A DNA stretch of 46,011 nucleotides, taken from Candidatus Yanofskybacteria bacterium RIFCSPHIGHO2_01_FULL_44_24. GTDB lineage: Bacteria > Patescibacteriota > Minisyncoccia > 2-02-FULL-40-12 > GWA2-44-9. Within the stretch, counting starts at the first letter, position 1. Every line of letters starts with the position of its first letter. The position numbers and the translations under genes were made by a program. Shown piece by piece: positions 16 to 44,245 of the stretch. Under the pieces are notes generated by a model, which was given only the letters and a program-made list of their open reading frames with translations, was not told where the DNA came from and did no database searches. Location of the stretch: assembly GCA_001794215.1 (NCBI GenBank), contig MGJK01000003.1, forward strand, positions 1 to 46,011, given 5' to 3'.

Positions 16-115
16 GGCAGAACCCCAAAAAGAAAAATGTCCTTTCCATTTTCAGAAAAAATCGGGCGCGCGCAAATCCGAAAAGCGAGGAACATTTTTT
101 CTTTTTGGGGTTGCC
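16..115. repeat. Long imperfect palindrome with AACCCC...GGGGTT termini
   Basis: ggcagaaccccaaaaagaaaaatgtcct (16-43) is nearly the reverse complement of aggaacattttttctttttggggttgcc (88-115). Confidence 0.8.
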
Positions 116-249
116 GAGTGAAGCGAGGCGGTGGCGGGGCTTTCGTGGAGCGTACGGCTTAATTTAGAGCCACCACGCGCTTCGCGCGTGCGACACATCA
201 TTTGTTTTGAAAATAGGTTCTAACTTGGTACAATAGAGACACCATTATC

Positions 250-1683
250 ATGGAACTGCCTAAAGAAGTAAAAAACATATTAAACGCACTCGAAAAAGCA
301 GGTTTCGAGGGATTTATTGTGGGCGGGTGCGTCCGCGATTTATTGATGGGCAGAAAGCCTAAAGACTGGGATGTCACCACGAATGCTAAACCCGAAAAGA
401 TCCAGAAGATTTTTCCCGAGAACGTCTACGAGAACACATTCGGTACGGTTGGCGTAAAGACAGGCTCAGAAGATCCGGTTGTTTCCATCGTGGAAATAAC
501 GCCCTATCGTATTGAGGGTAAATATACCGATAAGCGCCACCCCGATGAAATCCGCTTCGCTGAAACTCTTAAAGATGACTTGTCGCGCCGGGATTTTACG
601 ATAAATTCCTTGGCCATGAATGAAAAAGGGGAGATAGTAGATTTATTCGGTGGCCAGAAAGACATCAAAAACTGTTTAGTCAGGACCGTAGGCAAACCGG
701 AAGAAAGATTTTCAGAAGATGCCCTGCGACTCTTAAGAGCCGCGAGATTCGCCTCGTCTTTGAATTTCGAACTGGAAAGTGAAACCAAAAAAGCCGTAAA
801 AGAGAAGTCGGAATGGCTGCGGGCAATATCTAAAGAAAGGATAAGGGACGAATTTATAAGAATAATTGAATCAGATAACGCCTACGAAGGCGTCCTCCTT
901 CTTGAAGAAAACGGACTTCTAAAATACATAGTTCCTGAATTGCGAGAGGGGATAGATGTGGGCCAGAACCTCCATCACATTTATACGGTCTGGGAACATA
1001 ACACCCGAGCCCTTAAATACGCGGCGGAAAAAAAATATTCATTAACAGTCCGGCTCGGGGCTTTATTTCACGACATAGGCAAACCAAGAACAAAAAGGGG
1101 AGACGGGAAATATTCCACTTTTTACGGCCACGATGTCGTAGGGGGAAGAATGACGGCTGAGATAATGGAGAGGCTGAAATTCCCCAAAGAATTAGCAGAA
1201 AAAATAATCAAGCTGGTCCGCTATCATTTGTTCTACTACAACGTCGGAGAAGTAACAGAATCTTCCGTTCGCAGATTATTGGTCAATGTCGGTCATGAAA
1301 ATATGGAAGATTTGATAAAAGTCCGTGAGGCAGACCGCATCGGTTCGGGCAGACCCAAAGCGGTGCCGTATAAGCTAAGGCATATGAAATATATTATCGA
1401 TAAAGTTTCGCACGATCCGATTTCGGCAAAAATGCTCAAGGTGAACGGAGAGGACGTCATGAAAGAGCTTAAGATAAAGCCCGGACCAAAAGTTGGCTTG
1501 ATCCTTAATTACCTTTTGGCTGAGGTTATAGACGACCCGGCCAAAAACAAAAAAGAGGACCTAAAAAAACGGATCCACGAACTTGATAAAAAGTCTCCGG
1601 AAGAACTTAAGAGGGCTTTAGAAAAGATAGAAAAAGCAGTCGAAGAAGAAGAAAAGGAAAGAATGAAAAAATATTATGTATAG
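250..1683 (+). CDS. cca: CCA tRNA nucleotidyltransferase (class II) with HD domain
   Basis: VGGCVRDLL, DWDVTT, RRDFTINS, EDALRLLRA, and HD motif FHDIGK. Four of the six tRNA genes here lack an encoded CCA. Confidence 0.92.
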   Translation: MELPKEVKNILNALEKAGFEGFIVGGCVRDLLMGRKPKDWDVTTNAKPEKIQKIFPENVYENTFGTVGVKTGSEDPVVSIVEITPYRIEGKYTDKRHPDEIRFAETLKDDLSRRDFTINSLAMNEKGEIVDLFGGQKDIKNCLVRTVGKPEERFSEDALRLLRAARFASSLNFELESETKKAVKEKSEWLRAISKERIRDEFIRIIESDNAYEGVLLLEENGLLKYIVPELREGIDVGQNLHHIYTVWEHNTRALKYAAEKKYSLTVRLGALFHDIGKPRTKRGDGKYSTFYGHDVVGGRMTAEIMERLKFPKELAEKIIKLVRYHLFYYNVGEVTESSVRRLLVNVGHENMEDLIKVREADRIGSGRPKAVPYKLRHMKYIIDKVSHDPISAKMLKVNGEDVMKELKIKPGPKVGLILNYLLAEVIDDPAKNKKEDLKKRIHELDKKSPEELKRALEKIEKAVEEEEKERMKKYYV

Positions 1684-1728
1684 TATGCCGCACCTTTATG
1701 ATATATCATAAAGGTTATTATATATATC

Positions 1729-2187
1729 ATGGCCCATATAAAAACTGCGATCATGAAAAAAATAAAAATTAAAAGATTCGATAAGGACTTCCCTCTGCCG
1801 GAGTACAAAACGGCGGGAGCGGTTGGTTTTGACTTGATCGCCAGGAAAAATACAAAAATAAAACCAGGCATGGTAGGATATGTCCCTCTGAATATTGCCT
1901 TGGAAACGCCCGATGATTGTGTTCTATTTATAGCCGCAAGGGGTTCAACCCATAAATTCGGAGTTTTACCTGTTCATGGCATAGGGATAGGAGACCCGGA
2001 CTTCAGGGGGGAAGGCGATGAATACAAGATACCCTTGCTCAACTTTACCAAGGAACCGGTCACAATAACCAAGGGGGCGAGAATTGCTCAGGGATTTTTT
2101 GTAAAATTCATAAAAGCAAGCTGGCAGGAAATTACAAAAATGAAATCAAAAACAAGAGGGGGCTTCGGGAGTACGGGACATAGATAA
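1729..2187 (+). CDS. dut: dUTP diphosphatase (trimeric)
   Basis: AVGFDL motif 1, DPDFRGE motif 3, RIAQ motif 4, RGGFGSTG motif 5. Confidence 0.9.
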   Translation: MAHIKTAIMKKIKIKRFDKDFPLPEYKTAGAVGFDLIARKNTKIKPGMVGYVPLNIALETPDDCVLFIAARGSTHKFGVLPVHGIGIGDPDFRGEGDEYKIPLLNFTKEPVTITKGARIAQGFFVKFIKASWQEITKMKSKTRGGFGSTGHR

Positions 2188-2203
2188 CCCTCACACTACA
2201 TAC

Positions 2204-2274
2204 CGGGATGGAGTATGCCGGTAGTACGCACGCTTCGGGTGCGTGAAGACCGAGTTCGATTCTCGGCATCCCGA
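2204..2274 (+). tRNA. tRNA-Pro(CGG)
   Basis: Acceptor CGGGATG/CATCCCG; anticodon arm CACGC-TTCGGGT-GCGTG; T arm CCGAG-TTCGATT-CTCGG; no encoded CCA. Confidence 0.92.
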
Positions 2275-2327
2275 CTGAACGAAGTGAAGGAGGTCCTGAG
2301 CCTATCAAAAGGCGAAGGACAAGACAT

Positions 2328-2360
2328 ATTCAAAAACAGGTTCGATGCCTGTTTTTGAAT
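2328..2360. terminator. Hairpin, possible terminator after tRNA-Pro
   Basis: 13 bp perfect inverted repeat attcaaaaacagg / cctgtttttgaat. Confidence 0.6.
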
Positions 2361-2383
2361 CAAGGCACATAACCTTGTCAGGA

Positions 2384-2417
2384 ATTAAAAGACACCGAAA
2401 AATCGGTGTCTTTTAAT
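2384..2417. terminator. Bidirectional intrinsic terminator
   Basis: attaaaagacaccga-aaaa-tcggtgtcttttaat between convergent transcription units. Confidence 0.75.
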
Positions 2418-2419
2418 AT

Positions 2420-3076
2420 TTATGTCGTCGGAGTTGGAGATGGTGACGGGCTAACAGATGGGGACGGACTTGGCGACGGTTTCGGTAAAGAGTTCATCGC
2501 TTTTCTCGCGTCAACTAATGCCCGATGAACATTCTTTATCTTGTCTCTGATCTCTTCGACAAGTTGTTTAACTTTTTTTAGAGCTTCTTTTGGTTCATTA
2601 TTATTTATGAGGCTCTCGACTTGAGCAGTTCCATCCTGAATCATCTTCGCGGTGTCATCGATCATTTTCACGGCATCATCAAGTTTCTTCTTGACTTCGG
2701 TAACGTCGACGCCTCGAGCGGCTAACTTATTAAGCTTCTTCCTGAGGTTATCAGCCAATCTTCTTTCGTTTCTGAGTAAAACCTCAAGTCGATGCATCAT
2801 TTTTCTCCAGAATTTTCTAACTTCTTCTTTTCTCTTTTCTAATCTCTTCGCCTCTCTTTCATCCTTTTTTTCTTCCTTCTTCTGATCTCTCTCTTCTTTT
2901 CTTTCTTCTTGTTTCTGTTTATTTTCCTGCTTTCTCTCAAGAGCTCTTTCCCTTGCAGTCGGCGAAGCCGACGGTGAGGGTGAGGGCGTCGGCGAAACCG
3001 TCTGAGCACTTACGGACAATCCCGACAAAAGAAATGCTGCCATTATGACGGCGGCTGTGTAATTGTGTTTTTTCAT
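2420..3076 (-). CDS. Secreted coiled-coil protein with Pro/Ser linkers
   Basis: Signal peptide (..VSA-Q), PSPSP tracts at both ends, K/E-rich helical core. Confidence 0.75.
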   Translation of the reverse strand: MKKHNYTAAVIMAAFLLSGLSVSAQTVSPTPSPSPSASPTARERALERKQENKQKQEERKEERDQKKEEKKDEREAKRLEKRKEEVRKFWRKMMHRLEVLLRNERRLADNLRKKLNKLAARGVDVTEVKKKLDDAVKMIDDTAKMIQDGTAQVESLINNNEPKEALKKVKQLVEEIRDKIKNVHRALVDARKAMNSLPKPSPSPSPSVSPSPSPTPTT

Positions 3077-3271
3077 TTAATTTTCTGACTATAGGCTTTT
3101 TCAGGAGTCTATGGTCAACGCTTTAATTTAACTAATTATACTAATAATCCTATAAAATAGCCAATTTCGACCTGATTAAAAGACGAAATGGGAAGATAAA
3201 TCTTACGTCCAAGCAGTACGACATAAATTAGCTAAATCGACTGATTTTTGATATTTTAACCAGGTAGAGAA

Positions 3272-3393
3272 GGGCCTATGGTTCAGTGGTAGAACACGGC
3301 CCCGCCCATAATACAGAGTCTTGGCGGGATTGCGATTTGTCACCAATCGCTTCGCTTTCGGACAAATCGGGAACATTCGCACCTGGCCCACCA
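3272..3393 (+). pseudogene. tRNA-like gene: intact 5' half and acceptor end, anticodon/T arms replaced by palindromes
   Basis: GGGCCTA-TG-GTTC-AGTGGTA-GAAC-A-CGGCC at the 5' end and GGCCC-ACCA at the 3' end; no anticodon-stem complement and no canonical T arm. Confidence 0.65.
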
Positions 3394-3408
3394 ATTACTT
3401 ATACTTGT

Positions 3409-3484
3409 GGGCCGTTAGCTCAACTGGTAGAGCGCTACATTCGCATTGTAGAGGTTACCGGTTCAAGTCCGGTACGGTCCACCA
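3409..3484 (+). tRNA. tRNA-Ala(CGC)
   Basis: Acceptor GGGCCGT/ACGGTCC with G3:U70; anticodon arm CTACA-TTCGCAT-TGTAG; T loop TTCAAGT; ends ACCA. Confidence 0.95.
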
Positions 3485-3507
3485 AAACGAATTTGAGAGC
3501 GTGGCAA

Positions 3508-6057
3508 CTATTTTATATCCTCGATCGTCAGGCCGAATTCCTGTCCCTTTTTTATACTCTTATCTAAAATCTTCTTGGCAATCGCATTCTCGATTCTGTC
3601 TTTGATGACCCTTTGCATCGGCCTCGCCCCGAATTGAGGATCAAATCCTATTTCGGAAATGTATCTGATAATATCTTCTGTCGGTTTGAATATGTAGCCT
3701 TTATTTTCGAGTTGCTTGGTCAGCGCCTCGATCAATATTCGGGCAATATCTCCGATCTGTTCTTTGGTTAACGGCCTGAATACGACTATCTCATCAAATC
3801 TGTTCAAAAATTCTGGACTGAAGTAATTCTGACGTATCAGTATATCCACAACCTTTTCTTTTTCCAAAGACGGGTCAAGGCCGCTTTTGACCATCTCTCT
3901 GATCTGTTCGGCGCCGGCATTGGATGTGGCGATGATGATATTCTGTTCAAAATTGACCTTCCTTCCGAAGACATCCGTAAGACGGGCTTCGTCAAAAACC
4001 TGCAAAAATATATTCAGAATATTCTTATGAGATTTTTCAATTTCATCGAGAAGAATCAGGGAAAAAGGATTATCTCTGACGGTGGAAACAAACTGGCCCG
4101 GCTCATTCGTTCTTAGATTTCCCAGAAAACGGTCCAAAGACTCAATATCCTGATATTCTGACATATCAAAACGGATCATCCTATCTACGGCTCCGTAATA
4201 GGTTGTGGCCAGTATTTTAGCGGTTAGCGTCTTTCCGACTCCGGTCGGACCAACAAATAAGAACACGCCGGCCGGCTTGCCTCTTTTCCCGAGTCCGGTT
4301 CTTAACCGCCTCATTGTTGAAGCAACCACCTCAACCGCCCGATCCTGGCCGACTAATTGCTTATGCATCAGACTCTCTAAGTTCTCTAATTTGGTTTTTT
4401 CTTCTTCGGCAATCGGACCAAGAGGAATTCCGGTTTTACGGCTGACTACCTCGTTAACATGCTGAGACATTAAAACCTTTTCTTTTTTATTCACCGCGTA
4501 AGAGACGGCCTCGGATAATAAGTCCACGGCTTTTTCCGGAAAAGGAGAGGTTCTGATATATTTATCGGCGCTCTCGATAATATTCTTAATCGCTCCATAG
4601 GTCACTATGATTCCTAATCTCGATTCGGTCTGAGGAACTATCTCCTCAAGTATTTTGAGGGTCTGATCAGAAGTGGCTTCGTCAACATCGATTCTTTCAA
4701 ATGCATTGGCTATCTCGGAACGATTCTCGATGAATTTATGGAAATTGGCCGAATTGGTGGTGGCAATAACCTGGATATGGGTCGATTTAAGGTACGGGAC
4801 GATAATCTCGGAAATATCCGCCCTCCCCATCCCCCCTATTTCACCGATAAAATTATGGAGGTCTTTTATGATCAAGATGATATTTCCTGAACGGGTGGCT
4901 TCGTTAAGCAGCTGGATTAAAATATTCTGTACGCCGGAAATATCCTTTGACGAAGACATCATCAGAGGAATGTTCAAATCAAATACTTTTTTATAATTAA
5001 GCTGGGGCAGAGCCCGTCCTTTGGCAATCAGGTCGACAAAATCAGCAATAAGCCTTTCTTTGCCGACGCCCTCCTCTCCGACAATAATGATATTGTTCTC
5101 TCCTGATCTGGCCAACACTTCTTCGATCTGACGTATTTCTTTATCCCGGCTCACTAATTTAAACGGCTGAAAAGATGTCTCCGATTGGTCGGTTAAGTTT
5201 TTAGCGAAAGAATTCAGGTAAGGGGAGTAGCCGTAAATCCACCCGCGCCCGATCGGAGCTTTGCGCACGAGATTCTCCAAAAGCCAGAATCGCCGGTTGT
5301 TCTGCCTGAAAGACCAGATATGCTCAAACCAGTTGGCTAACTCTTCCAAATCGTTGCGATCCAAGTCCTGAGCGAAGATGAGTTCTTTGAAATCGTTGTC
5401 ATGATCAAAAGCTGCAGCCAAAATATCGAGAACAGTTATTTTCTCTCCCCGATGGCTCGCCCTGATTTTGTCAGCTTCTTCAACTGTCCACCTAAGATCT
5501 TCCGAAATCGGCAAGTAAGCACTGATGTAATTGAAAGGAATATCTTTTCTTTCGTTGTCCGACAATTTGTTTTTAAACTCCTGTATGATTCCGGCATCGG
5601 GAATAATTCTGAAAATAATATCCCGGAAAAATTTATCGCCAAAAACGCGATAAAGAAAAGCCCGCAAGGGAATTGCACTATGTTTAGATAATCTTGCCGC
5701 CAAAGAAGCCTCGGACAGTATGCGGGCTGAATGATAATCAAGAATATCCGCCAAGTTATCTCCGGCTTCGGCCTTGGGATTCTTAAGGTGGTATTCGCCG
5801 AACAATTCGAAAAACAAGACCGCAAAGCCGATCGGCAGAAAGATCAGAGCAATCCCCAATAATCCATCGGGGTTGACCGAAGGCACGAAATTAAAGTTCG
5901 CTAAGATTGAAAAGAATTTCTTGATTCCCCAAAACCCAAGCGATACAAAACCGATCCCAAACAGTAATACGCGGTAAAGCTTCATAAGGCCGCCCGGAAA
6001 AATACGGTAAAAAACTACCGCGTCATAAATTGACGATTTGTTCGGATTAAAATCCAT
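3508..6057 (-). CDS. Membrane-anchored ClpA/ClpB-family AAA+ ATPase
   Basis: Two N-terminal hydrophobic segments; D1 GEEGVGKE; D2 GPTGVGKT, RFDMSEY, LLDEIEK, FSPEFLNRFD, FGARPMQR. Confidence 0.85.
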   Translation of the reverse strand: MDFNPNKSSIYDAVVFYRIFPGGLMKLYRVLLFGIGFVSLGFWGIKKFFSILANFNFVPSVNPDGLLGIALIFLPIGFAVLFFELFGEYHLKNPKAEAGDNLADILDYHSARILSEASLAARLSKHSAIPLRAFLYRVFGDKFFRDIIFRIIPDAGIIQEFKNKLSDNERKDIPFNYISAYLPISEDLRWTVEEADKIRASHRGEKITVLDILAAAFDHDNDFKELIFAQDLDRNDLEELANWFEHIWSFRQNNRRFWLLENLVRKAPIGRGWIYGYSPYLNSFAKNLTDQSETSFQPFKLVSRDKEIRQIEEVLARSGENNIIIVGEEGVGKERLIADFVDLIAKGRALPQLNYKKVFDLNIPLMMSSSKDISGVQNILIQLLNEATRSGNIILIIKDLHNFIGEIGGMGRADISEIIVPYLKSTHIQVIATTNSANFHKFIENRSEIANAFERIDVDEATSDQTLKILEEIVPQTESRLGIIVTYGAIKNIIESADKYIRTSPFPEKAVDLLSEAVSYAVNKKEKVLMSQHVNEVVSRKTGIPLGPIAEEEKTKLENLESLMHKQLVGQDRAVEVVASTMRRLRTGLGKRGKPAGVFLFVGPTGVGKTLTAKILATTYYGAVDRMIRFDMSEYQDIESLDRFLGNLRTNEPGQFVSTVRDNPFSLILLDEIEKSHKNILNIFLQVFDEARLTDVFGRKVNFEQNIIIATSNAGAEQIREMVKSGLDPSLEKEKVVDILIRQNYFSPEFLNRFDEIVVFRPLTKEQIGDIARILIEALTKQLENKGYIFKPTEDIIRYISEIGFDPQFGARPMQRVIKDRIENAIAKKILDKSIKKGQEFGLTIEDIK

Positions 6058-6442: not shown

Positions 6443-6483
6443 TTCTTATAAGTAATTATAGCAATTAAGCCTCGAACCACCAA

Positions 6484-8917: not shown

Positions 8918-9723
8918 TGACTACCACACTACCCACTAAGTTTACTCCTAAAAAATCCTTGGGTCAGAATTTTTTAATTAACCCCCACATAATAGACCGG
9001 ATTATTGATGCCGCCCGAATATCAGAGAAGGATTTAGTTTTAGAAATAGGTCCCGGAACAGGAAATTTAACGGAGAAGCTGGCGAAAAAGGCTGGCCAAG
9101 TTATCGCAATCGAGAAAGATAACCGCCTCATCGAACCCCTGCGGGAAAAGTTTAAGAATTTTAAAAATATAGAAATAATTGAGGGCGATGTCCTTGCAAA
9201 GATGCCCTTTGTAAAACAAAGGGCATCTTTGCAATATAAAATCGTCGCCAATATCCCATATTACATTACGTCCAATCTGTTCCGGAAAATATTCGAAGAG
9301 TGGCCCAGACCCGAGCTGGTCGTTCTGACAATTCAAAAAGAAGTCGCCCAAAGAATTACGGCCAAACCGCCCCATATGAACCTACTGGCCCTCTCCGTTC
9401 AATACTACGCCGAACCGGAAGTGGTTGTCTTTATTTCTAAAAATAACTTCCGGCCGATTCCCAAGGTTGACTCAGCTATTATCCGCTTAAATCCTAAATC
9501 CGAAATCCGAAATCCTAAAAAAACAGAAGAAATTTTTAAAGTAATAAAAGGGGGGTTCTCGGAGAAAAGGAAACAACTGGCAAGCAATCTTTCAAAAAAA
9601 CTTAAACTGTCTAAAAGCGCCGTCCTTGAAGCATTTAAAACGGCCGGTATAAAAGAACTATCACGACCGGAAAACCTTTCTCTCAACGACTGGGAAAATT
9701 TGGCAGAAGCTCTATTTGGCTAA
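8917..9723 (+). CDS. rsmA: 16S rRNA adenine dimethyltransferase KsgA/RsmA
   Basis: KKSLGQNFL, EIGPGTG, VANIPYYIT, PIPKVDS. Confidence 0.95.
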   Translation: MTTTLPTKFTPKKSLGQNFLINPHIIDRIIDAARISEKDLVLEIGPGTGNLTEKLAKKAGQVIAIEKDNRLIEPLREKFKNFKNIEIIEGDVLAKMPFVKQRASLQYKIVANIPYYITSNLFRKIFEEWPRPELVVLTIQKEVAQRITAKPPHMNLLALSVQYYAEPEVVVFISKNNFRPIPKVDSAIIRLNPKSEIRNPKKTEEIFKVIKGGFSEKRKQLASNLSKKLKLSKSAVLEAFKTAGIKELSRPENLSLNDWENLAEALFG

Positions 9724-9749
9724 GCACTGAAGTGGGTTATAATTGAGTA

Positions 9750-18937: not shown

Positions 18938-19055
18938 ATACTAAATCCTAAACAAATTCCAATGACCAAAATCCGAATTATCAAAACTGTTTTGAACATT
19001 TGGAAATTTGCATTTTGATATTGTTTAGAGTTTAGATATTAGAATTTAGAAATTT
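18922..19055. repeat. 7-nt-period palindromic element, copy 1
   Basis: AAATCCG/AAATCCT left arm, centre tcaaaac-t-gttttga, TTTAGA right arm; homologous to 21946-22080. Confidence 0.85.
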
Positions 19056-19061
19056 ATTCAA

Positions 19062-32650: not shown

Positions 32651-32682
32651 ATTTAAATCGCCCCGGCCGGGGCGATTTAAAT
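32651..32682. terminator. Perfect 32 bp palindrome, likely bidirectional terminator
   Basis: atttaaatcgccccggccggggcgatttaaat between convergent genes. Confidence 0.7.
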
Positions 32683-32685
32683 CAG

Positions 32686-32892
32686 TTACCAGCTATTTCC
32701 TTCATCTTCGTCTCCGGCCACTGGATCGCTCTCGTCATTAAGATCGGGGTCGTCCATCTCACTGTCATCCTCCTCGTCATCATCCTCTTCTATCACAGGT
32801 TCGACCGGGTCACCATCGAGACCGCCATCTTCTATAGACATCGTTTTCCAGAACAGACTGTCCATAAATGGGTTTTCTTTGCCTGTCCCCAT
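32686..32892 (-). CDS. Small highly acidic protein
   Basis: 27 of 68 residues are D/E; AAGGAG upstream; own promoter and terminator. Confidence 0.6.
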   Translation of the reverse strand: MGTGKENPFMDSLFWKTMSIEDGGLDGDPVEPVIEEDDDEEDDSEMDDPDLNDESDPVAGDEDEGNSW

Positions 32893-32967
32893 CAGCTCCT
32901 TAGGGATCAGATAAGAGATCGGGCAAATAAGCTTATTTATATTATTATATTACAAAAATCATCCTCA

Positions 32968-32995
32968 ATTGTATTTATGTGGATAACAATGTCAA
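32968..32995 (-). promoter_or_regulatory. sigma70 promoter with a DnaA box in the spacer
   Basis: TTGACA-N16-TACAAT on the minus strand; TTATCCACA at 32978-32986. Confidence 0.75.
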
Positions 32996-33140
32996 CCCCT
33001 CACTTGAGGAAGGATAGGTTCTGCGGCAGCAAAGTCTTGTGGGTGAGGATTAATAAATGAACTAATCTATAATTCATAGACTTGGCTATTATACAGAACA
33101 ACTACTTTGCATATCCTTGCTGTATTACGGGGTCAACCCC
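32991..33140 (-). mobile_element. Palindromic element A (MITE/PATE-like)
   Basis: Homologous over its length to 35326-35474 in inverted orientation, with 28 bp identical; direct repeat gtcaacccctcac at 32991 and 33132. Confidence 0.7.
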
Positions 33141-33600
33141 TCACGGATGAAGCGCAACAAACCGCAATTGCTAAGGCGTCGGCGGCATCGTCCGGTTTAA
33201 TGTCGGTAGTAATTTTTAATATCAGGCGAACCATATTTTGAACTTGTTTTTTCTCCGCTCTGCCGTAATTGGTAATTGCTGACTTTATTTCCAGGGGGGT
33301 GAACTCGTAAAATGGCAGTCCGCTGTTTTCTATGGCCCAAAGCATAACCCCCCTCATTTGGGCTACCGGTATGGCGGTCTTTTGGTTCTTGAAGAAGAAC
33401 AGTTTTTCGACGGCAACCGCGTCGGGCTTGTATTTATTTATAATTTTAGAGACCTTATCCGCTGCATCTTTATATATTCCAGGTCCTTTGCCTGTGTTTT
33501 TTAAAATACCGTAAGCTAAACAAGACAGATTGTTTCCATTTGATTCTACGACCCCGAAACCGATACGAGTTATACCAGGATCAATGCCCAGGATTATCAA
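33133..33600 (-). CDS. ruvC: Holliday junction resolvase RuvC
   Basis: ILGIDPG, AVEKLFF, YGRAEK, DDAADALAIA. Confidence 0.96.
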   Translation of the reverse strand: MIILGIDPGITRIGFGVVESNGNNLSCLAYGILKNTGKGPGIYKDAADKVSKIINKYKPDAVAVEKLFFFKNQKTAIPVAQMRGVMLWAIENSGLPFYEFTPLEIKSAITNYGRAEKKQVQNMVRLILKITTDIKPDDAADALAIAVCCASSVRG

Positions 33601-33603
33601 ATA

Positions 33604-33687
33604 AATTTCTAATTTCTAATTTCTAATTTCTAAAAATAATAGTCTGGTAATAAATTTTAGAATAATTAGCTTGATTAGAATAATTAG
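33604..33687. repeat. Periodic repeat element between yebC and ruvC
   Basis: (AATTTCT)x4 at 33604-33631 facing TTAGAATAA-type repeats at 33657-33687. Confidence 0.8.
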
Positions 33688-33688
33688 G

Positions 33689-34201
33689 TCAATTCTCCGC
33701 AAGGTTAGAGATTACGTCCTCGACTTCTTCCTGATCATCGAGAGCTTCAAATAGAAGATCGATTTTATCTCTCACAGATTCATCCGGGGCAGTAAATTGT
33801 TCGTCAAGCATCCAGCCTATACTGCCGGGCGGAACCATCTTACTTTCATGTTCGCTGAGTATATTTTTAATATCGGCAACAGTTCTATTTCTGTTGTCGG
33901 TAATCGCCTTTACACGCATAGCTATTCCGCCGGGTCCAATCCCGTCGATTATCAGCTCTTCTAATTGAGCCGAGGATTTATCGGCCGCTTTCTTTATCGC
34001 CCGCGCTATATTGTCGTTCGGAACATTCATTGCTCGAGCCTGGTCTATCGCTTGAGACAGGGCGGCGTTGGATTTCGGGTCAGTGCCTTTTTTTGCCGCA
34101 AGAGTTATCGCCCTCGATATCTTAGAGAAAAGCTGTCCTCGTTTTTTATCAGTAACGGCTTTTTTGTGTCTGATCTGGGCCCACTTAGAGTGTCCGCTCA
34201 T
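33689..34201 (-). CDS. yebC: YebC/PmpR-family protein, short form
   Basis: MSGHSKWAQIRHKK, GPGG, TDNRNRT, V..VISN; 170 aa. Confidence 0.92.
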   Translation of the reverse strand: MSGHSKWAQIRHKKAVTDKKRGQLFSKISRAITLAAKKGTDPKSNAALSQAIDQARAMNVPNDNIARAIKKAADKSSAQLEELIIDGIGPGGIAMRVKAITDNRNRTVADIKNILSEHESKMVPPGSIGWMLDEQFTAPDESVRDKIDLLFEALDDQEEVEDVISNLAEN

Positions 34202-35247
34202 AGCAGTGTATTTTTAATTCCAAGATGTTTTAGGCCTTGAGCGGTGATAACCCGGCCCTTTGGTGTCCGGGCTATTAACCCGATCCTCAGCAGATACGGT
34301 TCATAAACATCTTCGATGGTGCCCTCTTCTTCCGATATGGAGGCAGCGATAGATTTAAGTCCTACGGGACCGCCGGCAAACTTGTCTGCGATAGCGTGCA
34401 TAATTTCTCTGTCTGTTTTTTCAAGTCCTCGGTCGTCTATCTCGAGCATGGCTAAGGCCTTTTTTGCGGCCAAAGCGCTTATGGAAGTTTCCTCATCCGT
34501 CATTTGGCTATAGTCCCTTACTCTTTTGAGCAGGCGGTTGGCTACCCGGGGAGTGAATCGTGATGCCTGTGAAATAATGCTTACCGCCTCTTTGTCCGTA
34601 TCTATACTGAGCAATTTAGCCGAGCGGTTGACGATTCTTTCTATGTCTCCCTGATTATAAAAATCCAGCCTCAAATTAGCTCCGAAGCGAGATCGAAAAG
34701 GGGATGAGAGCATTGATATCTTGGTCGTAGCGGCGATAAGGGTAAACCGAGGCAGGTCTATCTGAAGAGTCTTAGCCGAATTGCCTTTACCGATGACTAT
34801 ATCAAGTTTAAAGTTTTCCATTGCCGGATAAATAACCTCCTCAACGGCTTTATTCAGCCTATGGACCTCATCTATAAATAAAATATCCCCGTCGCTTAGG
34901 CCGGTAAGTATTGAGCCGACATCCCCGGCTTTTTCAAGGGCAGTGCCGGAAGTAATTTTAAGATTTGCTCCCAGTTCCTTGGCTATAATATAAGCAAGAG
35001 TCGTCTTGCCTAAGCCGGAGGGGCCGTGAAGCAGAAGATGCTCGATAGGTTCCTTTCTTTTCTTAGCCGCTCCGATAAGTATCTTAAGATTTTCTTTTAT
35101 CTTATCCTGGCCGACATACTCATCAAAGTTGGAGGGCCTTAGCGCGCGGTCAAGAACCTGATCGTCCAAGGTCGGCTTCGGAGCAACTTCTTGCCGGCCG
35201 GCCGTAGAATTATTTGATCCCGGATTGTCGTGTCTCTTAATTTTCAT
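34198..35247 (-). CDS. ruvB: Holliday junction branch migration helicase RuvB
   Basis: LRP..F..YVGQ, GPSGLGKTT, FIDEVHR, TPRVANRLL, GGPVG, EPYL. ATG 35247 preferred over 35298, which lies in a hairpin. Confidence 0.96.
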   Translation of the reverse strand: MKIKRHDNPGSNNSTAGRQEVAPKPTLDDQVLDRALRPSNFDEYVGQDKIKENLKILIGAAKKRKEPIEHLLLHGPSGLGKTTLAYIIAKELGANLKITSGTALEKAGDVGSILTGLSDGDILFIDEVHRLNKAVEEVIYPAMENFKLDIVIGKGNSAKTLQIDLPRFTLIAATTKISMLSSPFRSRFGANLRLDFYNQGDIERIVNRSAKLLSIDTDKEAVSIISQASRFTPRVANRLLKRVRDYSQMTDEETSISALAAKKALAMLEIDDRGLEKTDREIMHAIADKFAGGPVGLKSIAASISEEEGTIEDVYEPYLLRIGLIARTPKGRVITAQGLKHLGIKNTLL

Positions 35248-35325
35248 ATAAGATTCCAACCCGACAGAGGTCTCGCTCGCCCCATAGAGGCGAGTCATAA
35301 GACCTCGGCGAGGCTATCTCTAACG

Positions 35326-35474
35326 GGGGTTGACCCCGTAATACAGCAAGGATCGGCAAAGCAGTCATTCTGTCCTATATGCCGGTTCTATCTAATCATC
35401 TACGCTTGATAATCTGGACTATCAGTTAGTCTTTGCTTATGCAGAATATATCCTTGCTGATATGCGGGGTTGAC
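35326..35474 (+). mobile_element. Palindromic element B (MITE/PATE-like)
   Basis: Arms ccccgtaatacagcaaggat / atccttgctgatatgcgggg; ggggttgac at both ends; homologue of element A. Confidence 0.7.
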
Positions 35475-35498
35475 ATTCATTTTAATTTAGATTACAAT
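35470..35498 (+). promoter_or_regulatory. sigma70 promoter with no downstream ORF
   Basis: TTGACA-N17-TACAAT. Confidence 0.75.
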
Positions 35499-35504
35499 AT
35501 GCAC

Positions 35505-35688
35505 GGATCATAAGCCTCAAAACCCATTTAATCTGTAGGCAATTGGGTAGGTGTTGTCACGCAGACCCAACAGGGATACTGTCTTAGTTCGGATAGTTTG
35601 GTTCCGACTGAACTACTCCTCGGAATTATCCTATCCCGCGTTTTGTAAATTCGGGCCTTTGCCTACAGATTAAAGGGGTTTTATGTTT
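35505..35688 (+). ncRNA. Candidate structured RNA (6S-like size) or further palindromic element
   Basis: 16 bp perfect stem tttaatctgtaggcaa/ttgcctacagattaaa plus aaaaccc/gggtttt closing several inner helices; follows a near-consensus promoter. Confidence 0.45.
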
Positions 35689-35699
35689 AAAAAGTGCTT

Positions 35700-37361
35700 T
35701 TAGCCGAATACTCTCTCAAGCTCTTCCAGCGAAGTGATGCCTTCAAGAAGTTTCAAGTATCCGTCTTGAACCATCGTGACCATACCCTCGCTTACCAGAA
35801 GTTCATTAACTTCAGAAATCACCATTGGCCGGCTCATCAGCTTTTCTAATTCTTTAGATACCGAGAAAACCTCAAACGATCCTAAACGGCCGGAATATCC
35901 AAGGTGGCTGCATTCAGCGCATTGTCCCGGGTAGTATATTTTTAGAGACGAGCTCAAGTCGGGGAATTTTATCCGACCACTGATCGGTTCAAGGATCTTT
36001 TTAATTTTTGTAAGATCACCGGGGCTTACTTTCTTTAATATTTTGCATGATCCGCAGAGTTTTCTAATTAATCTTTGGGATATTACCAAATTCAAAGCCG
36101 GGGCGAGTATTTCCGGTTTCACGTGAAGATCTACCAGGCGGGGGATGGCTCCGGCGGCGTTGTTAGCGTGAATGGTTGATAAAACAAGGTGACCGGTCAA
36201 ACTCGCGTTCAGAGCTATATCGGCCGTTTCCATATCGCGTATTTCTCCGACTAAAATAACGTCCGGATTTTGCCGCATTATTATCTTGAGTCCGTTGGCG
36301 AATGTGTAGTTTTTGGCCGGATCAACCTGGCTTTGAGATATACCTTGAATATGATATTCAATCGGATCTTCAATGGTTAGGATTTTAGTTTTTGAAGAGT
36401 TTATGTAGTTTACAAAAGCATAAAGAGTGGTCGTCTTACCGGCTCCGGTCGGGCCGCTTACCAAGACCGTGCCGGTATTTATCTTAAGTTTTTCTTTTAT
36501 AAAATCGAGGATGTCTTTGCGCAGTCCAAGATCCTCGAGGGTGCCTCTTACGGTGAAGGGGTCAAGGATCCTCATTACTACGGTTTCGCCGAATTCGCTC
36601 GGTAAAATTGATATCCTCAAGTCGACGTTGTTATTATTCTTTTGTCGAACGCTGAACCGGCCTTCTTGGGGTCCATGGACATTTAACTTTAGCTTGGAAA
36701 GGATTTTGATCCTGTTTAAAATCTTATTGTAGTAGTCGTGATCAATAGTGGCTACATCGTAAAGAATTCCATCAAGTCTGTAGCGCAGGCGGGCAGTGGT
36801 TCTCTCCGGTTCAAAATGTATATCCGAAGCCCGTGTCTTTAGAGCTCCTGCCATTAAGATTTCGAGTAGTTTGGTGACCGATACATTGGTTATTTTTGAT
36901 TTCAGGTCAGCAATGGTTTTTATTTCATCTTCAAGTCTGGAAAGCTCTTCCTCGTCTATCTCGATTGCTCCGACTTCGAACACCTGAGGACGTTCGGAGG
37001 ACTTGTATCTTGCCCAGACGCGCTCCAAAGCCTCGGGGGTCGTTATCATTATTTCAAGGTTAAGTCCGGGTTTTTTAAGCGATTCAATGGTCTTTTGAGT
37101 GGCTGGGTTTGAGGGGTCAGTGACGGCGATGATCAGCTTTGAGGCGGTTTTGTATAAAACGGCCAGATTGGAGCTTCTGGCGGTATCTTCGTTTATAACA
37201 TGAAGAGCATCGCGATCTATCGGAACGCCTTTTAGATTGGAAAATGGCAGATTCAGGCCGGAAGCTAAAGAGTGGTACTTTTCCTCAGATTCTTTTACCG
37301 CAATATCCTGCAGTTTTTTCTCGAGTTCTTCTTCTTTTGTTCGGATTTGAGAGGGAGCCAT
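35700..37361 (-). CDS. GspE/PulE/PilB-family secretion/pilus assembly ATPase
   Basis: ASDIHFEP, GPTGAGKTT, TIEDPIEY, RQNPDVILVGEIRD, TGHLVLSTIH, two CxxC motifs. Confidence 0.93.
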   Translation of the reverse strand: MAPSQIRTKEEELEKKLQDIAVKESEEKYHSLASGLNLPFSNLKGVPIDRDALHVINEDTARSSNLAVLYKTASKLIIAVTDPSNPATQKTIESLKKPGLNLEIMITTPEALERVWARYKSSERPQVFEVGAIEIDEEELSRLEDEIKTIADLKSKITNVSVTKLLEILMAGALKTRASDIHFEPERTTARLRYRLDGILYDVATIDHDYYNKILNRIKILSKLKLNVHGPQEGRFSVRQKNNNNVDLRISILPSEFGETVVMRILDPFTVRGTLEDLGLRKDILDFIKEKLKINTGTVLVSGPTGAGKTTTLYAFVNYINSSKTKILTIEDPIEYHIQGISQSQVDPAKNYTFANGLKIIMRQNPDVILVGEIRDMETADIALNASLTGHLVLSTIHANNAAGAIPRLVDLHVKPEILAPALNLVISQRLIRKLCGSCKILKKVSPGDLTKIKKILEPISGRIKFPDLSSSLKIYYPGQCAECSHLGYSGRLGSFEVFSVSKELEKLMSRPMVISEVNELLVSEGMVTMVQDGYLKLLEGITSLEELERVFG

Positions 37362-38881: not shown

Positions 38882-38886
38882 AAGCC

Positions 38887-42783: not shown

Positions 42784-42812
42784 GATTTTGTGATAAAATA
42801 TCCGCCAGTAAT

Positions 42813-42884
42813 GCCCCCATAGCTCAACGGATAGAGCGACACCCTTCGAAGGTGGAGATCTGGGTTCGATTCCTGGTGGGGGCG
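42813..42884 (+). tRNA. tRNA-Arg(TCG)
   Basis: Acceptor GCCCCCA/TGGGGGC; anticodon loop CT-TCG-AA; T loop TTCGATT. Confidence 0.92.
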
Positions 42885-42955
42885 CAAGAATAGATCGAAG
42901 TCTAAAAAATAAAAATAATTTTCAATTTTGATATTTACATTTAAAGTTATTATAC

Positions 42956-43028
42956 GCGCCCGTAGCTTAATTGGTGAAGCAGCTCGCTCTTAACGAGAAG
43001 ATTGAAGGTTCGAGTCCTTCCGGGCGCA
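42956..43028 (+). tRNA. tRNA-Lys(CTT)
   Basis: Acceptor GCGCCCG/CGGGCGC; anticodon loop CT-CTT-AA; T arm GAAGG-TTCGAGT-CCTTC. Confidence 0.93.
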
Positions 43029-43039
43029 CAGCTTTAAGT

Positions 43040-43354
43040 ATGAAAGAAGTACTACCCAAAAATCGATTAATTGAGGACCCGGACTATTATAGGAATATCA
43101 TAGAGAGAATTGCCGAGGAACTTGAAGGGTTGGCTAAGTTATTTGACCAAGAAACATCAGGCATTCGCAGAATGAGTGGGTCATGGGGAGAGAAAGCTGC
43201 TCTACTTAAGTCAGGCGAGAAGCTTGGGTCAGATCAGTCGGCAGTGAGAGAAATAGTTAAGGATATTGCAGATAATGCAGGGTTATCGGTTGGAGAGCGA
43301 CAATATCTTTTAGGTCGGGTGTTTAATCCGCCAAGACTTAGAAAGACCGATTAA
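43040..43354 (+). CDS. Hypothetical protein
   Basis: ATG 43040, 11 nt after tRNA-Lys; the track start 42971 lies inside the tRNA. Confidence 0.55.
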   Translation: MKEVLPKNRLIEDPDYYRNIIERIAEELEGLAKLFDQETSGIRRMSGSWGEKAALLKSGEKLGSDQSAVREIVKDIADNAGLSVGERQYLLGRVFNPPRLRKTD

Positions 43355-43415
43355 GAATAGTTTTCATATAGATCGTCAGCTCTTTTAGTATTTGGCATTC
43401 AAACTAACGGCAATT

Positions 43416-43447
43416 AATCTAAAAACCCCTTCCGGGGTTTTTAGATT
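43416..43447. terminator. Bidirectional terminator
   Basis: aatctaaaaacccc-ttcc-ggggtttttagatt between convergent genes. Confidence 0.8.
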
Positions 43448-44006
43448 AGGATTCCTGAACTATTTCTATGACAACTCTTTTACTTCCGAAAGTCTTGGCT
43501 AAGTTTCTTTCGGGGAACCAGATGTCGATATTATTCGTATACCGGGCATTCATTCTGTCTTCAACGACGAATACCTTATCACCGTAAATTTCCGGTATCC
43601 TAACCAATGTGCCAAAAGGAACTCGGCGGCCGTTGACATAAAAATTTGCCGCGATGATACCGTCGCGGACATATGCTCCGGAAGCGGTTATGAAGGGCGT
43701 GCTGTCGGTTTGATCTGGAGTCGAAGAGTACCCCGTTGCCCTAACCGTGTGGGTTTTTACAACCTTTAATTCCGGAGCGGGTTCTTTTTTGTCGGCTACA
43801 ATATCACCTAAAACAAGAAGCTGGTCAGAGTTATAGATACCGTTCATCGAAAATTCCCCAAGATCTAATAAGCCGTTAAGCAGTCCGCCTCCGTCATTTG
43901 GGTTTGATGCCCAGCTAAAGAAACCGGCCTGAGCTGGGGCTTGGGGGATTAGCTGACACAAAAGAACCACAGCTCCTATCGATATTAATTGTGTAATTTT
44001 AACCAT
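43446..44006 (-). CDS. Secreted 3D-domain (MltA-like) cell-wall protein
   Basis: Signal peptide; ATGYSSTPDQTD, TASG, VVEDRM, IDIWF. Confidence 0.85.
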   Translation of the reverse strand: MVKITQLISIGAVVLLCQLIPQAPAQAGFFSWASNPNDGGGLLNGLLDLGEFSMNGIYNSDQLLVLGDIVADKKEPAPELKVVKTHTVRATGYSSTPDQTDSTPFITASGAYVRDGIIAANFYVNGRRVPFGTLVRIPEIYGDKVFVVEDRMNARYTNNIDIWFPERNLAKTFGSKRVVIEIVQES

Positions 44007-44102
44007 TTTTTAGCCTCATGAGCCGGTATTATCTGTTCTCGGGGCTCGCTTTATGAAGTTGCGCCGCCCCCGACTCAAAGTAGGTTGAATATAGGTCTTT
44101 TA

Positions 44103-44245
44103 GGCAACACCCTCACACCTATCAAGTACTTGCCGCTCTTGTTTCCATGGACAGTATTATCTACCCAGACCATAGGTTAGGTCGGTCAGAATAATAATCA
44201 TGGCAACTGTTAAGAAACATGTATTTGATAGGTGTGAGGGCAACA
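44103..44245. repeat. 131 nt imperfect palindrome flanked by a GGCAACA direct repeat
   Basis: ccctcacacctatcaagtac (44110-44129) versus gtatttgataggtgtgaggg (44221-44240), 19/20 complementary; nested inner helices. Confidence 0.8.

Follow-up and report, generated by a model that had tools for sequence, protein, structure and literature searches.

Hairpins in a Yanofskybacteria genome as probable gene-less relatives of very small GIY-YIG nuclease elements

The six long hairpins (E1 to E6) in the window, the whole 46,011-nucleotide stretch of DNA analysed here, are not a single family. E2, E3, E4 and E6 are short elements with terminal inverted repeats, and these four, probably together with E1, are likely to be miniature copies, lacking the gene, from a superfamily of very small mobile elements that in its full form carries a GIY-YIG nuclease. 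E5 lies outside the element family and is an ncRNA gene of its own, inherited vertically. The hairpins are taken as ORF-less derivatives because their repeats match those of 260–295 bp elements elsewhere in the window's own genome (G000, 0.97 Mb), each of which encodes only one GIY-YIG nuclease of 84–95 residues. Full-length members of the superfamily have one such gene inside terminal inverted repeats of 13–21 nt, likewise with YCCC...GGGR ends, and measure about 260–305 bp. A formal description of this GIY-YIG micro-element of these ultra-small groundwater bacteria was not found in the literature.

Table 1. Hairpins, target copies and ORF-bearing partner elements (positions in the window unless marked G000).
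Feature	Position	Strand	Description
E1	21..112	.	92-nt hairpin at contig start, arms AACCCCAAAAAGAAAAA / TTTTTCTTTTTGGGGTT
E2 target copy TTGA	32992..32995	-	with next bases, -35 box TTGACA
E2	32996..33132	-	137-nt ORF-less element; arms E4-type CCCCGTAATACAGCAAGGAT and C9/C11-type CCCCTCACTTGAGGAAGGAT
E2 second TTGA copy	33133..33136	-	overlaps ruvC stop codon
E3	35259..35329	+	degenerate copy of 71-nt three-way-junction element, upstream of ruvB
E4 left target copy TTGA	35330..35333	+	E3/E4 junction
E4	35334..35469	+	136-nt ORF-less element, arms CCCCGTAATACAGCAAGGAT / ATCCTTGCTGATATGCGGGG
E4 right TTGA copy and E5 promoter	35470..35498	+	TTGACA 35470-35475, 17 nt, TACAAT 35493-35498
E5	35519..35686	+	conserved structured ncRNA gene: 24-bp closing stem, inner hairpins, U-rich tail
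E6 left target copy CAACA	44105..44109	+	
E6	44110..44240	.	131-nt ORF-less element, 23-nt arms CCCTCACACCTATCAAGTACTTG
E6 right target copy CAACA	44241..44245	+	
ORF-bearing partner	G000 C12:49338-49619		repeat ATCCCGTTAGAGCCA
ORF-bearing partner	G000 C9:2136-2431		repeat GCCCCTCACTTGGAAAGGAT
ORF-bearing partner	G000 C11:59119-59403		
ORF-bearing partner	G000 C15:48223-48486		
Decayed ORF-bearing copy	G000 C7:12743		

Hairpins of the window

All six inverted repeats reported in an initial annotation were found where it had placed them, and its claim that they form one family fails on the unrelated E5. The shared termini are real in E2, E3, E4 and E6, which end in YCCC...GGGR between target duplications of 4–5 bp. 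The CCC and GGG of the proposed (A)AC and GT(T) termini stand, whereas the outer letters are the target duplication plus one closing pair and make up no fixed motif. A dispersed superfamily of mobile hairpins with conserved ends and free interiors is supported: the hairpins end in inverted repeats, duplicate a short target and recur at several scattered sites. When the single-stranded DNA fold was compared with those of 200 shuffles, z scores were -6.3 for E6 (44103-44245), -4.5 for E4 (35333-35471), -4.2 for E1 (21-112) and -2.8 for E3 (35258-35331); the score of E2 (32991-33140), whose two arms differ in type, was not significant (-1.8, 10 of 200 shuffles equally good). A genome-wide scan (12-nt arms, at least 10 of 12 positions paired, 40–320 nt apart) gave 133 CCC...GGG hairpins in G000 versus 62–83 in five second-order Markov genomes, and 74 versus 65–72 for the mirror control GGG...CCC. 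Counting both strands, the 0.97 Mb contain the decamer CCCGTTAGAG 24 times. The CCCGTTAGA end is present at about 20 places in G000, where manual reading gave 17 paired elements of 45–278 nt and two unpaired ends.

E2 is homologous to E4 in the opposite orientation and has copies in G000 at C11:3904-4034, C20:18999-19135 and C6:40220-40353; with these included, copies of the E2/E4 type outside the window lie on C6, C11, C20, C16 and C9. The minus-strand promoter at E2 (TTGACA-16-TACAAT) exists without the element in G001, the same-genus genome used for matching sites. The last codons of ruvC (GTGAGGGGT) resemble the remnant of an element end, and the ruvC C-terminus (...SSVRG-stop) is unlike that of the five relatives shown. 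At the E4 site, G001 reads uninterrupted (...ACGGGGC/TTGACATTC...). The start of the E6 arm matches the repeat around a decayed GIY-YIG gene (G000 C7:12743-12925). The E3-type consensus is YCCCGTTAGAAG...CTTCTAACGGGR, of which the left arm is mutated to CCCGACAGAG in the window's copy, and this copy has no clean target duplication; G001 has at this position a hairpin of ~45 nt ending in ...AACGGGGC. Membership of E1 in the element family is probable: look-alike pieces occur at other loci in three genomes (G034, G025 and G032), and homology with G001 begins only at base 154, past E1. Neither a second copy in G000 nor a clear target duplication was found for E1.

At least 28 of 40 relatives carry E5 next to ruvB. 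Of 10 genomes examined for its promoter, 8, with G000 among them, have the same one ahead of the RNA. Its fold as RNA (35519-35690) has a z score of -7.2, the consensus folds better on the plus strand (-50.0 kcal/mol) than on the minus strand (-40.1 kcal/mol), and G·U pairs are found on the plus strand only. The ACCC/GGGT ends that E5 appeared to share with the other hairpins covary away in relatives (for example, to ACTTAT/ATAAGT in G001). The initial annotation had named vertical conservation at one locus as an ncRNA as what would speak against its reading; E5 is conserved in just this way. E2, E4 and E6 are missing from the matching sites of G001.

Targets and fold of the elements

Insertion duplicates TNNA. 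The target of the E2/E4 type is the TTGA within promoter -35 boxes (TTGACA), and the box is regenerated; the widespread 71-nt E3 type mostly targets the TGAA of ATGAA gene starts, and the ATG is rebuilt. In 21 of 40 E3-type copies the four flank bases nearest the element agree between the two sides, whereas 1000 shuffled pairings averaged 5.3 such copies and never exceeded 14. The base adjoining the left end is Y, and that adjoining the right end is R, in all 40. Two copies in G032 with identical interiors have the flanks TGGA and TGAA/TGCG, hence the repeats derive from the target and not from the element. None of the 40 copies has C at position -3, and the common TGAA therefore has no counterpart with its complement, TTCA. 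At E4, E2, C20 and C6c, 4 of 9 copies by script, the right junction is a -35 box with a -10 box 16–17 nt further on, and the C11 copy adds one promoter junction by eye (TTGACT-18-TATACT). An ORF of at least 90 aa begins at +1 in 10 of 44 E3-type copies.

The E3-type fold is a conserved three-way junction with compensatory changes; 98.6% of the cells in the alignment are paired, 7 pairs are changed on both sides, and U·G is invariant at one pair (41/41) and present at another in 14 of 41. The T·G pairs of E3 are strand-specific and one bulge is conserved, features that make recognition of a folded single strand plausible.

GIY-YIG elements with matching ends

The hairpin ends match the ends of ORF-bearing elements in G000. 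The three partner ORFs that were compared with the Pfam GIY-YIG family match it with E values of 2e-16 to 2e-15, and the nearest solved proteins are UPF0213 (1ZG2, E 3e-13). An enzyme family does accompany the elements, as the initial annotation had expected, although it is a GIY-YIG nuclease and not a recombinase. Two congeners can differ in which form, hairpin or ORF-bearing, occupies an orthologous site: directly 5' of the same ATG, the 71-nt form is found in G032 and a 278-nt GIY-YIG form in G026. At locus L028, the element carried by G026 is missing in G032. GIY-YIG matches occur in 41 of 41 genomes (1–15 per genome). Among the best 30 GIY-YIG loci in relatives, 11 have strong inverted ends at 279–321 bp, and by manual reading YCCC adjoins the end in 8 of these; a simple gap-free scan found no strong inverted ends at the other 19. 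Inverted ends were likewise not found at 3 of the 8 small GIY-YIG genes in G000. Hairpins and ORF-bearing elements have only their 12–20-nt ends in common, no interior homology being seen, and neither the E4 arm type nor E1 yielded an ORF-bearing partner.

Alternative explanations and possible mechanism

Inverted ends with a target duplication are the classical signature of MITEs moved in trans by a DDE transposase through 4–5 bp staggered cuts, in which case the GIY-YIG genes would be passengers or unrelated users of the ends. Both orientations occur (E2 versus E4), and G000 has one rve-type IS (about C12:17441-18800). However, the ends of this IS (AATGACACCCAAAT) are unrelated to the hairpin ends, PF01609 has no match in G000 at E ≤ 0.1, a scan for inverted repeats of at least 16 nt spaced 0.5–4 kb gave no CCC-ended pair around a gene, and 44 loci with 2.5-kb flanks gave no long-range end pairs. 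Every ORF found between such ends is a GIY-YIG ORF, and the target is asymmetric, E3-type TTCA being absent. We consider this explanation improbable. Correia/NEMIS elements of Neisseria are bacterial MITEs in transcribed regions and are likewise short, with inverted ends, a target duplication, many copies, co-transcription with genes and RNA hairpins. The elements here differ in that their presumed autonomous partner encodes a GIY-YIG nuclease and not a DDE transposase, in that their duplication is TNNA and not TA, and in that one subfamily has a conserved three-way-junction interior.

We give an equally low probability to host-serving RNA structures (RNase III sites like rRNA intervening sequences, intercistronic stabilisers or terminators) that would be conserved for such a function and spread only incidentally. 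The covariation and strand-specific wobble pairs of E3 and positions exactly between stop and start codons fit an RNA role, as does the sense-strand bias for flanking genes (22 E3-type copies co-directional, 9 against), a bias that could stem from selection on RNA and not from the insertion mechanism. Yet the elements are missing at orthologous sites of close relatives, where the same junctions function in their absence, different subfamilies have unrelated interiors, and 9 of 44 E3-type copies are antisense to both neighbours; an RNA role accounts for tolerance but not for origin. The rRNA genes of CPR bacteria have insertions, neither group I nor group II introns, that contain GIY-YIG ORFs, and many ORF-less insertions under 200 bp occur in the same bacteria (J Bacteriol 2024, PMC11270868). 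This pairing of GIY-YIG ORFs with short ORF-less forms resembles the elements here and is also in keeping with the host-RNA explanation. In contrast, the portions of that paper drawn on here describe no inverted ends, hairpins or copies outside rRNA genes ('inverted repeat', 'palindrom' and 'hairpin' have 0 occurrences there).

REP/REPIN-like movement on single-stranded hairpins by a Y1 (HUH) RAYT-like transposase is less probable still. G000 does have one Y1_Tnp gene (C13:23750-24463, E 8.6e-10), flanked by palindromes whose copies often end in CCC(C)...GGGG. That palindrome (CATGTTTGGAGGT-N3-ACCTCCAAACATG, 8 copies) is a different sequence family, and the RAYT-like system of G000, which has this palindrome to itself, exists alongside the elements as a distinct one. 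Of 41 genomes, 21 have Y1_Tnp, and among the 10 relatives with E3-type copies it is present in only 7 (not in G015, G020 and G040). HUH transposition also takes the right-hand cleavage site along, whereas identical E3 copies have different flanks. REP/REPIN elements with RAYT genes and the elements here are alike in having one small nuclease-type gene flanked by palindromes that it presumably spreads, and in ssDNA hairpin recognition, which is putative here; they differ in enzyme fold, and REPs have no target duplication (partly after PMC11893778, in the portions drawn on here). Sites of the attC type, which the initial annotation had suggested, share imperfect, variable-length (45–290 nt) hairpins with conserved ends, tandem copies and a GTTGAC loosely like GTTRRRY, but integron-type recombination building gene-less cassette arrays is already contradicted and close to excluded, since there are no R''/R' cores with inverse-core/core pairing and no cassette ORFs, the flanks are direct, target-derived repeats that change with the target, copies are single and dispersed over 20 contigs in both orientations, and the only tyrosine recombinase gene in G000 (PF00589, C2:9644-10165) is distant from every stack, with no integrase adjacent.

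For the preferred reading, movement with a GIY-YIG nuclease, the closest published relatives are the Ssn nucleases with their NTS/dRS3/SRM hairpin repeats (Chenal et al., Nat Commun 2025, PMC11893778). According to the portions of that paper drawn on here, in which Patescibacteria have 0 occurrences, Ssn nucleases cut only hairpin ssDNA; SsnA, a GIY-YIG protein of 94 aa, binds the hairpin repeat only as ssDNA of one strand and cuts a few nt upstream of it, in the variable flank, and NTS-ssnA-NTS is likened to an IS by its authors. In both systems, as far as those portions go, a free-standing GIY-YIG protein of ~90 aa is encoded between copies of a repeat that is also found many times without a gene, the ends of the repeats are similar (ATTCCCGCG...CGCGGGAAT versus ATCCCG...CGGGAT), and one-strand binding fits the strand-asymmetric pairing of E3. 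They differ in that the ends here pair across a gene or a 20–250-nt interior, whereas each Ssn repeat is a self-contained hairpin of 20–30 nt; the elements here also have empty sites, clear duplications of a target that is a start codon or a -35 box, several end subfamilies per genome, and a host among the Patescibacteria, with UPF0213 as the nearest solved proteins, the Ssn clade being cd10448.

By analogy with the Ssn/NTS system, a structure-reading single-strand nuclease is plausible. We propose that the GIY-YIG nuclease would move the elements by recognising their folded ends on a single DNA strand and might cut in the flank, as Ssn nucleases do, and that host repair would complete the insertion. 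GIY-YIG enzymes hydrolyse DNA, and we know of no strand-transfer chemistry for them. The conserved E3 fold and its strand-specific T·G pairs may serve nuclease recognition, harmlessness in mRNA, or both.

Neighbouring genes survive because the duplication rebuilds the signal, and since the target is regenerated beside the element end at each insertion, copies accumulate head to tail, which produces the stack of three elements that lies between ruvB and the pilB-like gene. The tandem junction 'ggggt-tg-acccc' in this stack is the TTGA target shared by E3 and E4, and repeated insertion accounts for what had been seen as arrays of gene-less cassettes. We read the relation of the hairpins to the ORF-bearing elements as resembling that of MITEs to an insertion sequence.

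Six inverted repeats and their terminal motif

The genome of Candidatus Yanofskybacteria RIFCSPHIGHO2_01_FULL_44_24 (G000) comprises 0.97 Mb in 20 contigs and is 99% complete, with the window forming the entire contig C3. All six inverted repeats of the initial annotation were recovered in place and are termed E1 to E6. Folded as single-stranded DNA, E1 (z −4.2), E4 (z −4.5) and E6 (z −6.3) are far better than shuffled sequences, E3 is moderately better (z −2.8) and E2 is not significantly different (z −1.8). The six had been described as a single family with conserved terminal motifs. A triplet-anchored scan with simulated genomes, which replaced earlier hairpin catalogues that were too noisy (932 matches) or used other seeds that missed imperfect ends, gave 133 CCC...GGG-bounded hairpins across G000 compared with 62–83 in five simulated genomes, whereas the mirror control GGG...CCC gave 74 compared with 65–72. 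An excess that is not seen in the mirror control indicates that the motif is more than chance; this part of the description holds, but the six hairpins are not one thing. At Rfam gathering scores the whole window yields tRNAs only, and at E-value thresholds 32800–35800 yields nothing credible.

Coordinates of the hairpins, neighbouring genes and ORF-bearing elements in G000
Feature	Contig	Coordinates	Strand	Basis
E1	C3	21-112		
CCA-adding enzyme	C3	250-1683	+	Pfam
TyrRS	C3	31478-32650	+	Pfam
E2	C3	32991-33140		
RuvC	C3	33133-33600	-	Pfam
YebC-family gene	C3	33689-34201	-	Pfam
RuvB	C3	34198-35247	-	Pfam
E3	C3	35258-35331		
E4	C3	35333-35471		
E5	C3	35519-35682	+	
PilB-type ATPase	C3	35700-37361	-	Pfam
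E6	C3	44103-44245		
GIY-YIG ORF element, 278-nt form	C12	49338-49619		
ORF element, CCC-type ends	C9	2136-2431		
ORF element, CCC-type ends	C11	59119-59403		
ORF element, CCC-type ends	C15	48223-48486		
Decayed GIY-YIG element	C7	12743		

The window also contains AT-rich palindromes of tandem heptamers (AAATCCT and TTTCTAA types) at 9489–9523, 18914–19060, 21939–22080 and 33604–33697. This family occupies 30 intervals in G000 and has matches of at least 90% in many relatives, and summed contig depth is very high (1500–5300) over 33579–33675 in four groundwater or soil runs.

The E5 RNA beside ruvB

E5 is, judged by its sequence, a vertically inherited RNA gene. The plus strand of the window at 35470–35686 carries a conserved, structured RNA of ∼165 nt, which folds as RNA with z −7.2 and has its own TTGACA-17-TACAAT promoter. 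Of 40 relatives searched with 32600–36200, at least 28 have the stretch beside ruvB, counted among the matches listed, beyond which there are 46 more. An alignment of ten genomes (mean column identity 72%) gives a 49-pair consensus fold, in which 13 pairs show compensatory changes, at −50.0 kcal/mol for the plus strand versus −40.1 kcal/mol for the minus strand, on which the G·U pairs of the closing stem would become A·C mismatches. The promoter, TTGACATTCAT...TA(A/C)AAT, lies upstream on the same (plus) strand in eight of the ten genomes, including G000, and the ACCC/GGGT letters at the outer ends are lost through covariation in relatives. No Rfam family corresponds to E5, as 35490–35700 searched at E ≤ 10 gives nothing credible. 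Neither 6S RNA (RF00013) nor small SRP RNA (RF00169) has a match anywhere in G000 at E ≤ 1, and a literature search for 6S RNA in Patescibacteria found nothing relevant. Since G000 is without a detectable 6S or small SRP RNA, E5 may, as a guess, be one of these missing housekeeping RNAs, perhaps a divergent one, which makes it a candidate for the sort of housekeeping RNA that standard models miss in these bacteria.

In the same-genus genome G001 (locus L002) a small hairpin, ATCCCG-N8-CGGGAT, lies downstream of the E5 promoter and ahead of the RNA, and longer variants of it occupy this position in two other relatives, G005 (L005) and G010 (L010). At their ends these hairpins are similar to dRS3 of Neisseria, a repeat quoted as ATTCCC-N8-GGGAAT in PMC11893778.

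Insertion sites and the E3 subfamily

E2, E4 and E6 are insertions. E2 and E4 are homologous and oppositely oriented, with relatives on contigs C6, C11, C20, C16 and C9 of G000 and none among the 40 related genomes searched; the two arms of E2 are of different types, making it a hybrid. The E4 site is uninterrupted in G001 (...ACGGGGC|TTGACATTCATTTTT...) and reads ...ACGGGGG-TTGA-[E4]-TTGACATTCATTTTA... in G000. Directly after ruvC, G001 has the promoter TTGACA-16-TACAAT, and it is at this box that E2 lies between two copies of TTGA in G000. E6, which has CAACA on both sides, is absent from the G001 site. In four of nine E2/E4-type copies the right-hand duplicate is the −35 box of a promoter-like site with a −10 box 16–17 nt on, and a fifth case, on C11 (TTGACT-18-TATACT), was read by eye. 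Among the public sequencing runs listed for this DNA none is of RNA. In contigs from four DNA runs over 32900–35800, E3/E4 are unaltered, as in one of 1014 nt that spans 34993–35800. None of the contigs from these runs contains a joint skipping E2 or E4 in that region, the joints listed being short-sided and from other organisms or repeats. On the minus strand at 33133–33150, the ruvC C-terminus (...SSVRG*) is unlike that of the five relatives shown, and its last codons look like a remnant element end, GTGAGGGGTTGA.

E1 is probably also a member of the family, with look-alike pieces at other loci in the relatives G034, G025 and G032. It is without a clean duplication, no second copy was found in G000, and homology to G001 begins only past it. 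A promoter-like block, TTGAAA-17-TACAAT, is present near three contig starts of G000 (window 197–244, C2:190–245 and C9:46–138) and may mark an assembly-breaking repeat.

E3 represents a subfamily that is widespread and strongly conserved. Its ends, CCCGTTAGAG...CTCTAACGGG, occur at ∼20 places in G000, read as 17 paired elements (45, ∼70, ∼115–120 and 278 nt in length) and two unpaired ends. Ten of the 40 relatives have matches to the ∼70-nt form at ∼80% identity, in many cases more than one per genome, and an exact 22-nt pattern was found at 44 loci in one-genome-per-species collections, 42 labelled as Patescibacteria-type MAGs and two on short contigs in bins labelled otherwise. Forty-one copies align as a 71-nt three-way junction with 98.6% of cells paired (all slid controls ≤47%) and 7 of 29 pairs altered on both sides, where the search pattern sets the first 22 columns, so that independent evidence comes from the other columns alone. 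At one position U·G is found in every copy (41/41), another position is U·G in 14 copies and U·A in 27, and a 3-nt bulge is conserved.

After four of the 44 copies were dropped because the right end was not found, the left end is always adjoined by Y and the right end by R (40 of 40). The four bases beyond match between left and right in 21 of 40, whereas 1000 shuffled pairings average 5.3 and reach at most 14, and mismatches cluster at the outermost positions. The element is thus YCCC...GGGR, and the target bases that it duplicates number four, with the consensus T-N-R-A; for E6 the duplication is 5 bp. Two copies in G032 have identical interiors and different flanks. The repeats are thus target-derived, which argues against both an HUH-type mechanism and an inherited recombination core.

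The commonest E3-type flank is ATGAA, in which the ATG is rebuilt from the terminal A of the element and the duplicated TG. An ORF of at least 90 aa begins at +1 in 10 of the 44 loci, and upstream ORFs often end a few bases ahead of the element. Elements are co-directional with both neighbours at 22 loci and antisense to both at nine. At locus L051 (G001:C8, 2406–2593) a 71-nt E3-type element is nested in a larger one of ∼115 nt whose ends are the same, and at L018/L023 and L050 a pair of head-to-tail elements is separated by 6 nt.

GIY-YIG elements and candidate movers

At an orthologous site in two congeners, G032 carries a 71-nt E3-type element and G026 a same-ended 278-nt element with an ORF, ahead of the same downstream ATG. 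The G026 form is the same element as that on C12 of G000; those on C9, C11 and C15 have other CCC-type ends. Each such partner element in G000 encodes only a small GIY-YIG protein, the ORF beginning just inside the left end and extending into the right; three of these ORFs, 84–88 aa from the first Met, match PF01541 with E values of 2e-16 to 2e-15, and the C12 copy uses as its stop codon the TGA contained in the duplicated ATGAA. The C12 ends match E3 and the 115-nt and 45-nt forms, those of C9 match the other arm of E2 and the C11, C20 and C6 copies, and those of C7 match E6. G000 has eight small GIY-YIG genes in addition to uvrC, and GIY-YIG matches are present in 41 of 41 genomes searched (1–15 each). 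Among the 30 best-scoring GIY-YIG loci, 11 have strong inverted ends at 279–321 bp, and by our own reading YCCC adjoins the end in eight of these. The nearest solved chains to the partner proteins are UPF0213 (1ZG2, 1YWL), and NCBIfam gave only a sub-threshold match to a group I intron endonuclease. Elsewhere on C12 (110380–110800) a tRNA gene (by eye tRNA-Lys) has a small GIY-YIG gene as its neighbour; because the 5' part of the tRNA gene, TCCGCCCTTAGC, is present three times, insertions into the 5' end of this tRNA gene are suggested.

The hairpins share with MITEs their terminal inverted repeats, small size (45–140 nt), lack of an ORF, several dispersed copies and presence or absence between relatives. 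Their target duplications are TTGA (E4, E2), CAACA (E6) and, for the E3 type, the 21 of 40 against 5.3 expected, and their ends are common to elements bearing GIY-YIG, the putative mobilising nuclease. The ends, duplications, empty sites, ends in common with nuclease-bearing elements and location at −35 boxes and start sites are established.

A known system offers a comparison. According to PMC11893778, the 94-aa GIY-YIG protein SsnA from Neisseria meningitidis binds its hairpin repeat (core ATTCCCGCG...CGCGGGAAT) only when this is single-stranded and only in one of the strands, cleaving the variable flank a few bases upstream. Copies of the repeat often lie to either side of ssnA, a layout that the authors remark is that of an insertion sequence. 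The partner proteins, at 84–88 aa, are likewise single-domain GIY-YIG proteins and of about the Ssn size (∼90–100 aa). One difference is that the multi-copy end motif here flanks the gene as inverted ends pairing with each other across it, rather than as two self-contained hairpins. Leaning on the Ssn family, the GIY-YIG nuclease would be the mover, reading folded ends on one strand, and a staggered cut with fill-in by host repair might give the 4-bp duplication, the latter step being our guess for a hydrolytic nuclease.

The invariant strand-specific T·G pairs of E3 would fit Ssn-type recognition and would fit selection at the mRNA level equally well. A purely RNA-level role of the hairpins would account for the tolerance of inserts, but not for their origin. 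REP/REPIN-style movement by an HUH enzyme has a candidate in a RAYT-like Y1 gene (237 aa, within G000 C13:23700–24520), which lies between palindromes, CATGTTTGGAGGT-N3-ACCTCCAAACATG, that have eight copies in the genome, one of them in frame within the Y1 gene itself. However, this palindrome family is other than that of the hairpins, where REP/REPIN systems use the same palindrome, and the Y1 gene co-occurs poorly with E3 (7 of 10 E3-bearing relatives, 21 of 41 genomes overall); Y1_Tnp and its palindrome are a separate REP-like system. For movement by a DDE transposase no candidate was found: DDE_Tnp_1 has no match in G000, a long-range inverted-repeat search for an autonomous partner gave none with CCC ends, and the one rve-type insertion sequence (approximately C12:17441–18800), which splits a C-methyltransferase gene, has unrelated ends, AATGACACCCAAAT.

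The initial annotation had likened the organisation of the hairpins to that of integron attC sites and REP/PATE elements, and had proposed a structure-specific recombination or insertion system building arrays of gene-less cassettes. The stems begin at CCC/GGG rather than by the inverse core pairing of attC (RYYYAAC/GTTRRRY), and the flanks carry the same word on each side (TTGAC...TTGAC, TCAAC...TCAAC, CAACA...CAACA). attC sites insert in a single orientation and without duplication, whereas here the repeats are target-derived and E2 and E4 are opposed. With the sole PF00589 match in G000, the signature sought for an integron integrase, on another contig (C2:9644–10165), the integron reading is abandoned. 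Tandem stacks are simply accounted for by repeated insertion regenerating the target, because every insertion leaves its target beside an element end. Sites beside the −35 box of the E5 promoter are taken up by (G)GGG-ending sequences in G000, G001 and two further relatives, G012 and G018. TIGR-Tas arrays were discounted, as their unit size differs and no Tas gene is known here.

A more far-reaching reading, to which we give rather less than even confidence, is that the hairpins, together with the relatives that bear an ORF, form a prokaryotic transposable element class of their own. Its sole protein would be a GIY-YIG nuclease of ∼90 residues, no enzyme of the DDE, HUH, serine or tyrosine type being involved. 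The nuclease would read folded ends on single-stranded DNA, the element would enter compact genomes at ATGAA starts or TTGACA −35 boxes that the duplication rebuilds, and some gene-less copies would have evolved the conserved three-way junction. The pairing of enzyme and hairpin is already in print for Ssn (PMC11893778), as is the occurrence of GIY-YIG ORFs within CPR rRNA genes, in insertions that are not introns, inverted ends going unmentioned there (PMC11270868); PMC11602168 does not mention Patescibacteria or CPR. In the literature on repeats of CPR, Patescibacteria and Parcubacteria, on MITEs and on GIY-YIG, no description was found of an inverted-repeat micro-element, gene-less hairpins or start-codon and −35 targets, although supplements may bear on this.

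For annotation, such hairpins break assemblies, E1 lying at a contig start, mimic terminators or non-coding RNAs, and mark promoters and gene starts. If a small GIY-YIG nuclease truly moves these elements, this would represent transposition chemistry beyond the known enzyme classes and would supply the mobile-element context only hypothesised in the Ssn paper. It would also account for the persistence of selfish DNA in genomes below one megabase that have almost no room between genes, since the start codons and −35 boxes on which the elements land are rebuilt.
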